From the NCBI RefSeq assembly GCF_003334765.1, contig NZ_QOWT01000066.1: DNA of 5,353 bases, one strand, 5' to 3'. Within the stretch, counting starts at the first letter, position 1. Every line of letters starts with the position of its first letter. The position numbers and the translations under genes are program-made. This document shows positions 2,493 through 2,721 of the stretch, piece after piece. The notes under the pieces were generated by a model. The model worked only from the letters and a program-made list of their open reading frames with translations, was not told the DNA's origin and did no database searches. Origin of the DNA: Escherichia coli. Lineage in GTDB: Bacteria; Pseudomonadota; Gammaproteobacteria; Enterobacterales; Enterobacteriaceae.

Positions 2493-2501
2493 TTGGAAAT
2501 T

Positions 2502-2577
2502 TGGTGGAGCTAAGCGGGATCGAACCGCTGACCTCTTGCATGCCATGCAAGCGCTCTCCCAGCTGAGCTATAGCCCC
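2502..2577 (-). tRNA. alaW: tRNA-Ala, anticodon GGC
   Basis: Reverse complement is GGGGCTATAGCTCAGCTGGGAGAGCGCTTGCATGGCATGCAAGAGGTCAGCGGTTCGATCCCGCTTAGCTCCACCA, 76 nt with encoded CCA. The anticodon stem CTTGC/GCAAG flanks a loop with GGC at positions 34-36. This matches the E. coli tRNA-Ala(GGC) (alaW/alaX) sequence as I recall it. Only one copy is present, so alaW versus alaX cannot be distinguished. Confidence 0.95.
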
Positions 2578-2609
2578 GTCACGTAAAGCTTGTCGAGTTG
2601 ACGGGCGGC

Positions 2610-2638
2610 ATCATATGAATTCCGCCCGAATGTGTCAA
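2610..2638 (-). promoter_or_regulatory. Sigma70 promoter for tRNA-Ala: TTGACA, 17-bp spacer, TATGAT, GC-rich discriminator
   Basis: On the minus strand, -35 TTGACA is rc of 2633-2638 and -10 TATGAT is rc of 2610-2615, with a 17-nt spacer. The discriminator GCCGCCCG follows, typical of stringently controlled stable-RNA promoters. The predicted start lies about 25 nt upstream of the mature tRNA 5' end at 2577. Confidence 0.6.
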
Positions 2639-2721
2639 CGGCAAATTGCAACGTGTAGTTTCAATCGCTGAAAAATCAGGCAAATGAACAATTTTGGAAA
2701 ACCGCTCGCATTCAGTAGTTA

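Follow-up and report, generated by a model that had tools for sequence, protein, structure and literature searches.

The window, that is the whole 5,353-nt stretch of Escherichia coli DNA analysed here, carries a single tRNA-Ala(GGC) gene between pdeA (yfeA) and yfeC, and ends just inside the neighbouring tRNA-Val array (Table 1). The gene assignments rest on the open reading frames and on the annotations of identical DNA in MG1655, W3110 and other genomes. At the left end the window begins inside an IS186/IS421 element. Positions 1–52 have a median of 3 matches per genome, and the three IS186 copies of MG1655 agree with the window up to position 78–79. The motif GGGAT stands directly after the end of the element; the other IS186 flanks in MG1655 also start with GGGA, which would be consistent with the G-rich target preference of IS186. 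Some relatives (L011, L009) carry IS186 at the same site but reversed, and many relatives lack it. At the right end the tRNA-Val(UAC) gene itself occupies 5277–5352, so that the last base, a C at 5353, is the only one beyond it.

Table 1. Position and strand of the features of the window, with the basis of each call.
Feature	Position	Strand	Basis or remark
IS186/IS421 copy, last 78 nt	1..78		identical to all three MG1655 IS186 copies
pdeA/yfeA, annotated CDS	104-2293	minus	
Predicted intrinsic terminator	2461..2494	minus	terminator scan; identical in K-12
Remaining copy of the 81-nt perfect direct repeat (tRNA + 5 nt AAATT)	2497..2577	minus	
tRNA-Ala(GGC)	2502-2577	minus	ARAGORN, sole tRNA-Ala(GGC) call; Rfam RF00005, 63 bits
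Predicted sigma-70 promoter of the operon	2610..2638	minus	promoter scan, 11/12 consensus positions
yfeC	2798-3157		
yfeD	3159-3551		
gltX	3603-5018	minus	
First tRNA-Val(UAC) of the val-val-val-lys array + one base (C)	5277..5353	plus	ARAGORN, sequence comparison

The sequence-only reading had described a lone tRNA-Ala(GGC) gene flanked by a terminator and a consensus promoter, with no second copy between pdeA and yfeC. ARAGORN, Rfam and a mismatch search agree on the lone gene, and the terminator and promoter scans place both signals essentially at the coordinates that had been given for them. With the 76-nt gene as query and up to 3 mismatches allowed, nothing in the window other than 2502–2577 matches, and the K-12 inter-gene spacer has left no remnant anywhere in the window at the same tolerance (≤ 3 mismatches). 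The gene is 76 nt long, encodes its CCA and has a G3:U70 pair, as read directly from the sequence; it has the same sequence as K-12 alaW and also as alaX. The predicted promoter (TTGACA-17-TATGAT, 2638→2610) belongs to the alaW-side flank and has the same sequence in K-12 and in strain 2313. Downstream of it lie the G+C-rich stretch GCCGCCCG and then a leader of ∼ 26 nt; to judge from this G+C-rich discriminator, the promoter may be under growth-rate or stringent control. The predicted terminator, with a 10-bp stem (2494–2471), a 4-nt loop and a T-run, belongs to the alaX-side flank. Terminator flank, one tRNA and promoter flank are joined in the order GGGTTGGAAATT-tRNA-GTCACGTAAAGC, and the locus reads as a complete one-gene operon, whose promoter and leader are those of alaW and whose trailer and terminator, behind the single tRNA, are those of alaX.

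We compared this arrangement with the alaWX operon of K-12. The two agree in the Ala identity with GGC, the 76-nt tRNA, the position (pdeA, ala, yfeC-yfeD-gltX-val array) and, by sequence matches, an own promoter and terminator together with leader and trailer. They differ in that K-12 has two identical tandem genes with a 39-nt spacer, whereas the window has one gene and is without the spacer and one 76-nt copy. That K-12 carries a tandem alaW–alaX pair here, as the sequence-only reading had it, is borne out by the MG1655 record (L001, identical genes at 2703–2778 and 2818–2893) and by that of W3110, which also has two identical tandem genes. A published table enters only alaW for W3110 (PMC4678842); W3110 is nevertheless not a one-copy K-12 strain, its record having two tRNA-Ala genes.

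Alignment with MG1655 shows exactly 115 bp to be absent from the window, the rest of the interval being identical, so that the proposed copy-number difference from K-12 is real at the level of the two sequences. The missing 115 bp equal one repeat period (76-nt tRNA plus 39-nt spacer) and have left no scar. In MG1655 the repeat family consists of 2 copies of 88 nt with 97% identity at 115-bp spacing, of which 81 nt are perfect; the spacer between the tRNA genes contains a unique sequence of 34 nt, ACGATGCGTTTACGTACCAAGTTTGCTGGGTGCA. The deletion junction could lie anywhere within the 81-nt perfect repeat, which allows no finer placement. Over its whole length the window departs from MG1655 only in the 115-bp gap, a SNP in pdeA at 2136 and the C at 5353.

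The copy number at alaWX was surveyed in 5,426 complete E. coli genomes with queries built so that only one configuration attains at least 80% coverage. The inter-tRNA spacer junction, across all identity bands, is present in 5,293 of the 5,426, which disposes of the concern that most strains might carry a single copy. The one-copy form, with terminator, one tRNA and promoter contiguous, occurs in 137 genomes (2.5%) and three or more copies (spacer-tRNA-spacer) in 51 (0.9%); the remaining complete genomes have two copies. The locus is thus a small copy-number-variable tandem array in which two copies strongly predominate, and a single copy is an allele that recurs in a minority of genomes. Carriers include O157:H7 (EDL933 in three separate assemblies, ATCC 43894 and its derivative), K-12 MC1061 and OV2, KO11FL, Xuzhou21, porcine ETEC and others; for O157 Sakai, two copies are listed (Table 3 of PMC4678842). 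EDL933 (NZ_CP008957.1) and MC1061 (NZ_CP195014.1) share with the window the same 156-nt terminator-tRNA-promoter segment and have one annotated tRNA-Ala from pdeA to yfeC, but their strain backgrounds differ from that of the window. E. coli M8 (NZ_CP019953.1) has three annotated genes in an array of identical repeat unit and period (115 bp), an expansion where the window has a contraction. MC1061 is identical to MG1655 across the compared part of the window, yet has one copy against two in MG1655. Since the flanks of MC1061 and other one-copy genomes are found unchanged in relatives with two copies, the contractions and expansions at alaWX are recent and recurrent. As a feature, the locus in the window is unremarkable, a short tandem tRNA array contracted by one period, and many public genomes already have this allele. 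A literature search found no publication specifically on alaWX copy-number variation.

Some of the unusual copy numbers in 'complete' genomes fall into groups that share a submitter or stem from early short-read projects. MC1061 and OV2, both one-copy, form one such cluster; BL21(DE3), BL21-RIPL, Rosetta2(DE3) and XL10-Gold, each with three ala copies, form another, and Xuzhou21, with its ala and val arrays both reduced, is a further case. Records in submitter clusters are NZ_CP081489.1, NZ_CP083273.1, NZ_CP083274.1, NZ_CP081008.1, NZ_CP084683.1, NZ_CP195014.1 and NZ_CP195020.1. Such grouping points either to a common history of the stocks or to an effect of the pipelines. In BL21(RP) a single ala copy is accompanied by a val anomaly and, close to the record end, by odd additional matches annotated as tRNA-Gly.

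Beyond E. coli, one genome of each species was searched for the identical 76-nt gene. Among the matches listed, the assessable isolate representatives of the Enterobacterales carry a tandem pair at 111–142 bp spacing; the paired taxa comprise E. albertii, Citrobacter, Enterobacter, Klebsiella, Leclercia, Pseudescherichia, Pantoea and Erwinia as well as Dickeya, Pectobacterium, Brenneria, Photorhabdus, Xenorhabdus and Mangrovibacter. A single copy with both flanks was seen, among the matches listed, only in an Arsenophonus endosymbiont and in one MAG. Because the pair is conserved across the Enterobacterales, it is best read as ancient and the one-copy state as derived. Arrays of four tRNA-Ala(GGC) genes with periods of 123–131 bp are found in Edwardsiella hoshinae NBRC 105699 (L135, 3892–4345) and Aquitalea aquatica (L138); array expansion occurs in other genera too. 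The 76-nt tRNA-Ala(GGC) of E. coli recurs at 100% identity, among the matches listed, in numerous alpha-, beta- and gammaproteobacteria (Rhizobium, Ensifer, Bartonella, Cupriavidus, Polynucleobacter and Idiomarina among them), and its conservation appears unusually deep for a tRNA gene.

The lineage of the window is marked by the SNP at 2136 (T for A; pdeA is on the minus strand), which changes L53 to Q in the N-terminal MASE1 membrane domain of PdeA (YfeA). PdeA L53Q is rare, being found in 21 of the 5,426 complete genomes. All 18 complete genomes that are identical to the window over 2106–2700, L53Q included, have two tRNA-Ala copies, and two further L53Q genomes have three each. The K-12-like human isolate OZ121069.1, with IS186 next to pdeA, matches the window at 100% identity to either side of the gap and carries the tRNA-Ala pair (interval 1356050–1356759). 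A short-read draft of the window haplotype (L019) also has two copies. On the long contigs found with the exact PdeA L53Q protein there are always two ala copies; in ∼ 565 blocks of the assembly collection it lies on contigs of only 2–10 kb. None of the K-12-like one-copy genomes (MC1061, OV2, ECCTRSRTH03, TUM2820, 300490, 167 and F1053) matches the window; they depart from it at the pdeA SNP, in their IS context or in both respects. No full match to the window was found among the 5,426 complete E. coli genomes, and the window haplotype (L53Q with IS186 beside pdeA) occurs in finished genomes with two or three copies only.

Two origins had been proposed for the missing copy, recombination between the repeats and collapse of the tandem repeat during assembly, and both survive testing. 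The sequence alone cannot separate a loss in the cell from a loss in the assembler, because both give the same scarless product. On balance we think it somewhat more probable that the unit was lost in the assembler rather than in the cell. If the genome has two copies, its 81-nt perfect repeats would be longer than the k-mers of the usual short-read de Bruijn assemblies. The locus would then become a graph loop (flank–tRNA–spacer–tRNA–flank), and a contig path that exits the loop without passing through the spacer would drop one 115-bp period. The window would accordingly have to be a whole short-read contig and its source strain truly two-copy, as we infer that they are. An exact one-period loss with neither scar nor spacer remnant is the expected product of such loop-skipping.

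The ends of the window bear on the same point. Both lie 77–79 nt inside multicopy repeats, IS186 on the left and tRNA-Val plus 1 nt on the right. Repeat-bounded ends of this kind suggest a contig from a de Bruijn assembly at a k of ∼ 77, although the fit is off by 1–2 nt. As the 81-nt ala repeat exceeds a k near 77, the locus would be a loop that the assembler can skip. The final C of the window is also the terminal base of an independent metaSPAdes contig (L176, contig position 1), and the 2–10 kb contigs with the exact PdeA L53Q protein are consistent with repeat-bounded contigs.

Short-read metagenome contigs give a rate for the one-copy form that can be set against that of finished genomes. 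Of 48 contigs fetched with the alaW promoter flank 41 were assessable, of which 13 (32%) are one-copy and 28 two-copy. Compared with 137/5,426 complete genomes this is an excess of one-copy forms (Fisher P = 2.7e-11, odds ratio 18), short-read contigs showing the one-copy form ∼ 13 times as often as finished genomes. The one-copy form also depends on contig size, with 11/21 below 25 kb versus 2/20 at 25 kb or more (P = 0.006). The val array is contracted in all three fully readable one-copy contigs (L141, L147 and L185), compared with one of four two-copy contigs. Two observations on finished genomes point the same way: the window haplotype is two-copy in all 18 complete genomes that match it over 2106–2700 and in OZ121069.1, and some of the odd copy numbers group by submitter or by old short-read project.

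Other observations speak against collapse. Real one-copy alleles exist, as the three separate assemblies of EDL933 show. Draft isolate assemblies generally resolve the pair, assessable Enterobacterales isolates having at least two copies among the matches listed, which may mean that collapse is rare in well-covered isolates. Metagenome contigs with a coverage of at least 44× (n = 3) are all two-copy. A real base rate of 2.5% is thus to be weighed against a collapse rate that runs from a few percent in isolates to ∼ 30% in metagenomes. The evidence favouring collapse over contraction is circumstantial, and it leans towards collapse as slightly more likely.

The alternative is that one repeat unit was deleted in the strain itself, by unequal sister-chromosome recombination or replication slippage between the 81-nt repeats. 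We regard such a loss as a serious possibility, a little short of an even chance. Misaligned pairing of the two perfect repeats would take out one period, and both routes are well established for short tandem repeats in E. coli. The loss of exactly one period between perfect direct repeats is what this predicts, and the one-copy allele recurs in the 137 complete genomes on unrelated backgrounds, while the reciprocal products of unequal exchange, three or more copies, are seen in 51. Relatives whose flanks are the same can differ in having one copy or two (MC1061 versus MG1655), and the adjacent val array behaves alike, BW25113 and J53 having two val genes rather than three. Against this, the finished-genome base rate is just 2.5%, part of which may be artefact too; none of the 18 finished genomes with the exact haplotype of the window has one copy; and the window resembles a short-read contig in the k-mer regime that makes the locus a graph loop, the class of sequence in which the one-copy form is so much commoner.

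If the contraction took place in the strain, it was probably recent, private to this isolate and nearly neutral. Deletion of redundant or 'non-target' tRNA copies in E. coli affects fitness weakly, mainly in rich medium, and 'non-target' tRNAs have backup from modified-wobble isoacceptors (PMC9981150). So weak a cost would let one-copy alleles persist, and by the same token the allele in the window should be nearly neutral. The gene dose of tRNA-Ala(GGC) would be halved, leaving 4 Ala tRNA genes in total instead of 5, and the operon would be expected to stay functional, with promoter, tRNA and terminator all intact. The biological weight of the feature is thus very small, at most a near-neutral halving of the dose of one redundant tRNA gene.

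We consider it very unlikely that alaWX, with its 1, 2, 3 or more copies, and the val arrays together form a fast and reversible tRNA dosage switch under changing growth, of which this isolate would represent a co-ordinated down-shift. Hardly any credence can be given to a one-copy ancestor, with the K-12 pair as a lineage-specific duplication, or to an engineered deletion: nothing supports the former, which is ruled out by the spacer junction in nearly all complete E. coli genomes and by the tandem pair in E. albertii and many other Enterobacterales genera, and the latter, although compatible with the sequence if scarless, has to contend with the absence of FRT, lox, any other scar or a cassette at the locus and with a backbone that is a natural ST10-like haplotype (PdeA L53Q) rather than a standard laboratory strain.

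Collapse in the assembler remains the reading that we narrowly prefer. The practical use of the finding is as a caution. Because about one-third of metagenome contigs are one-copy, compared with 2.5% of finished genomes, tRNA counts at alaWX taken from short-read or metagenome assemblies are unreliable, as are those at valUXY; copy-number differences at either array call for read-level or long-read support before they are interpreted.

The val array at the right end of the window shows comparable variation. In K-12 the final C of the window (5353) matches the base that follows valX and valY but not the one that follows valU (A), which fits either a contracted val array or a contig-end effect. 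A form in which the first val gene is joined to the valX-type downstream spacer, that is three genes reduced to two, occurs in 133 of the 5,426 complete genomes, among them BW25113 (two annotated val genes), the J53 family and E. coli C. A single val gene directly before lysV is seen in ∼ 27 genomes, such as TG1, Xuzhou21 and HNSQ2209. The overlap between one-copy ala and single-val genomes is at least 2 where 0.29 would be expected (P ∼ 0.03), a weak test that covers 60 of the 137 one-copy rows. The array is found at 3231–3508 of the BW25113 segment (L188) and at 5878–6275 of that from W3110 (L003). Like alaWX, valU-valX-valY-lysV in BW25113 and J53 consists of tandem identical tRNA genes from which one period has been lost, and the frequency of the loss is similar; it differs in the tRNA and in its three-copy parent, and of this array the window shows the first val gene and one base only.

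The neighbourhood of pdeA and the yfeD–gltX interval are frequent targets of insertion sequences. EDL933 carries an IS200/IS605 tnpA and a TnpB gene between yfeD and gltX (L190, 4330–5971). In isolate F1053 (L010) ISKpn26 lies within pdeA and IS4321 within yfeD (1195–2174 and 4061–5065), and strain 14EC001 has IS1 in the ala–yfeC interval.
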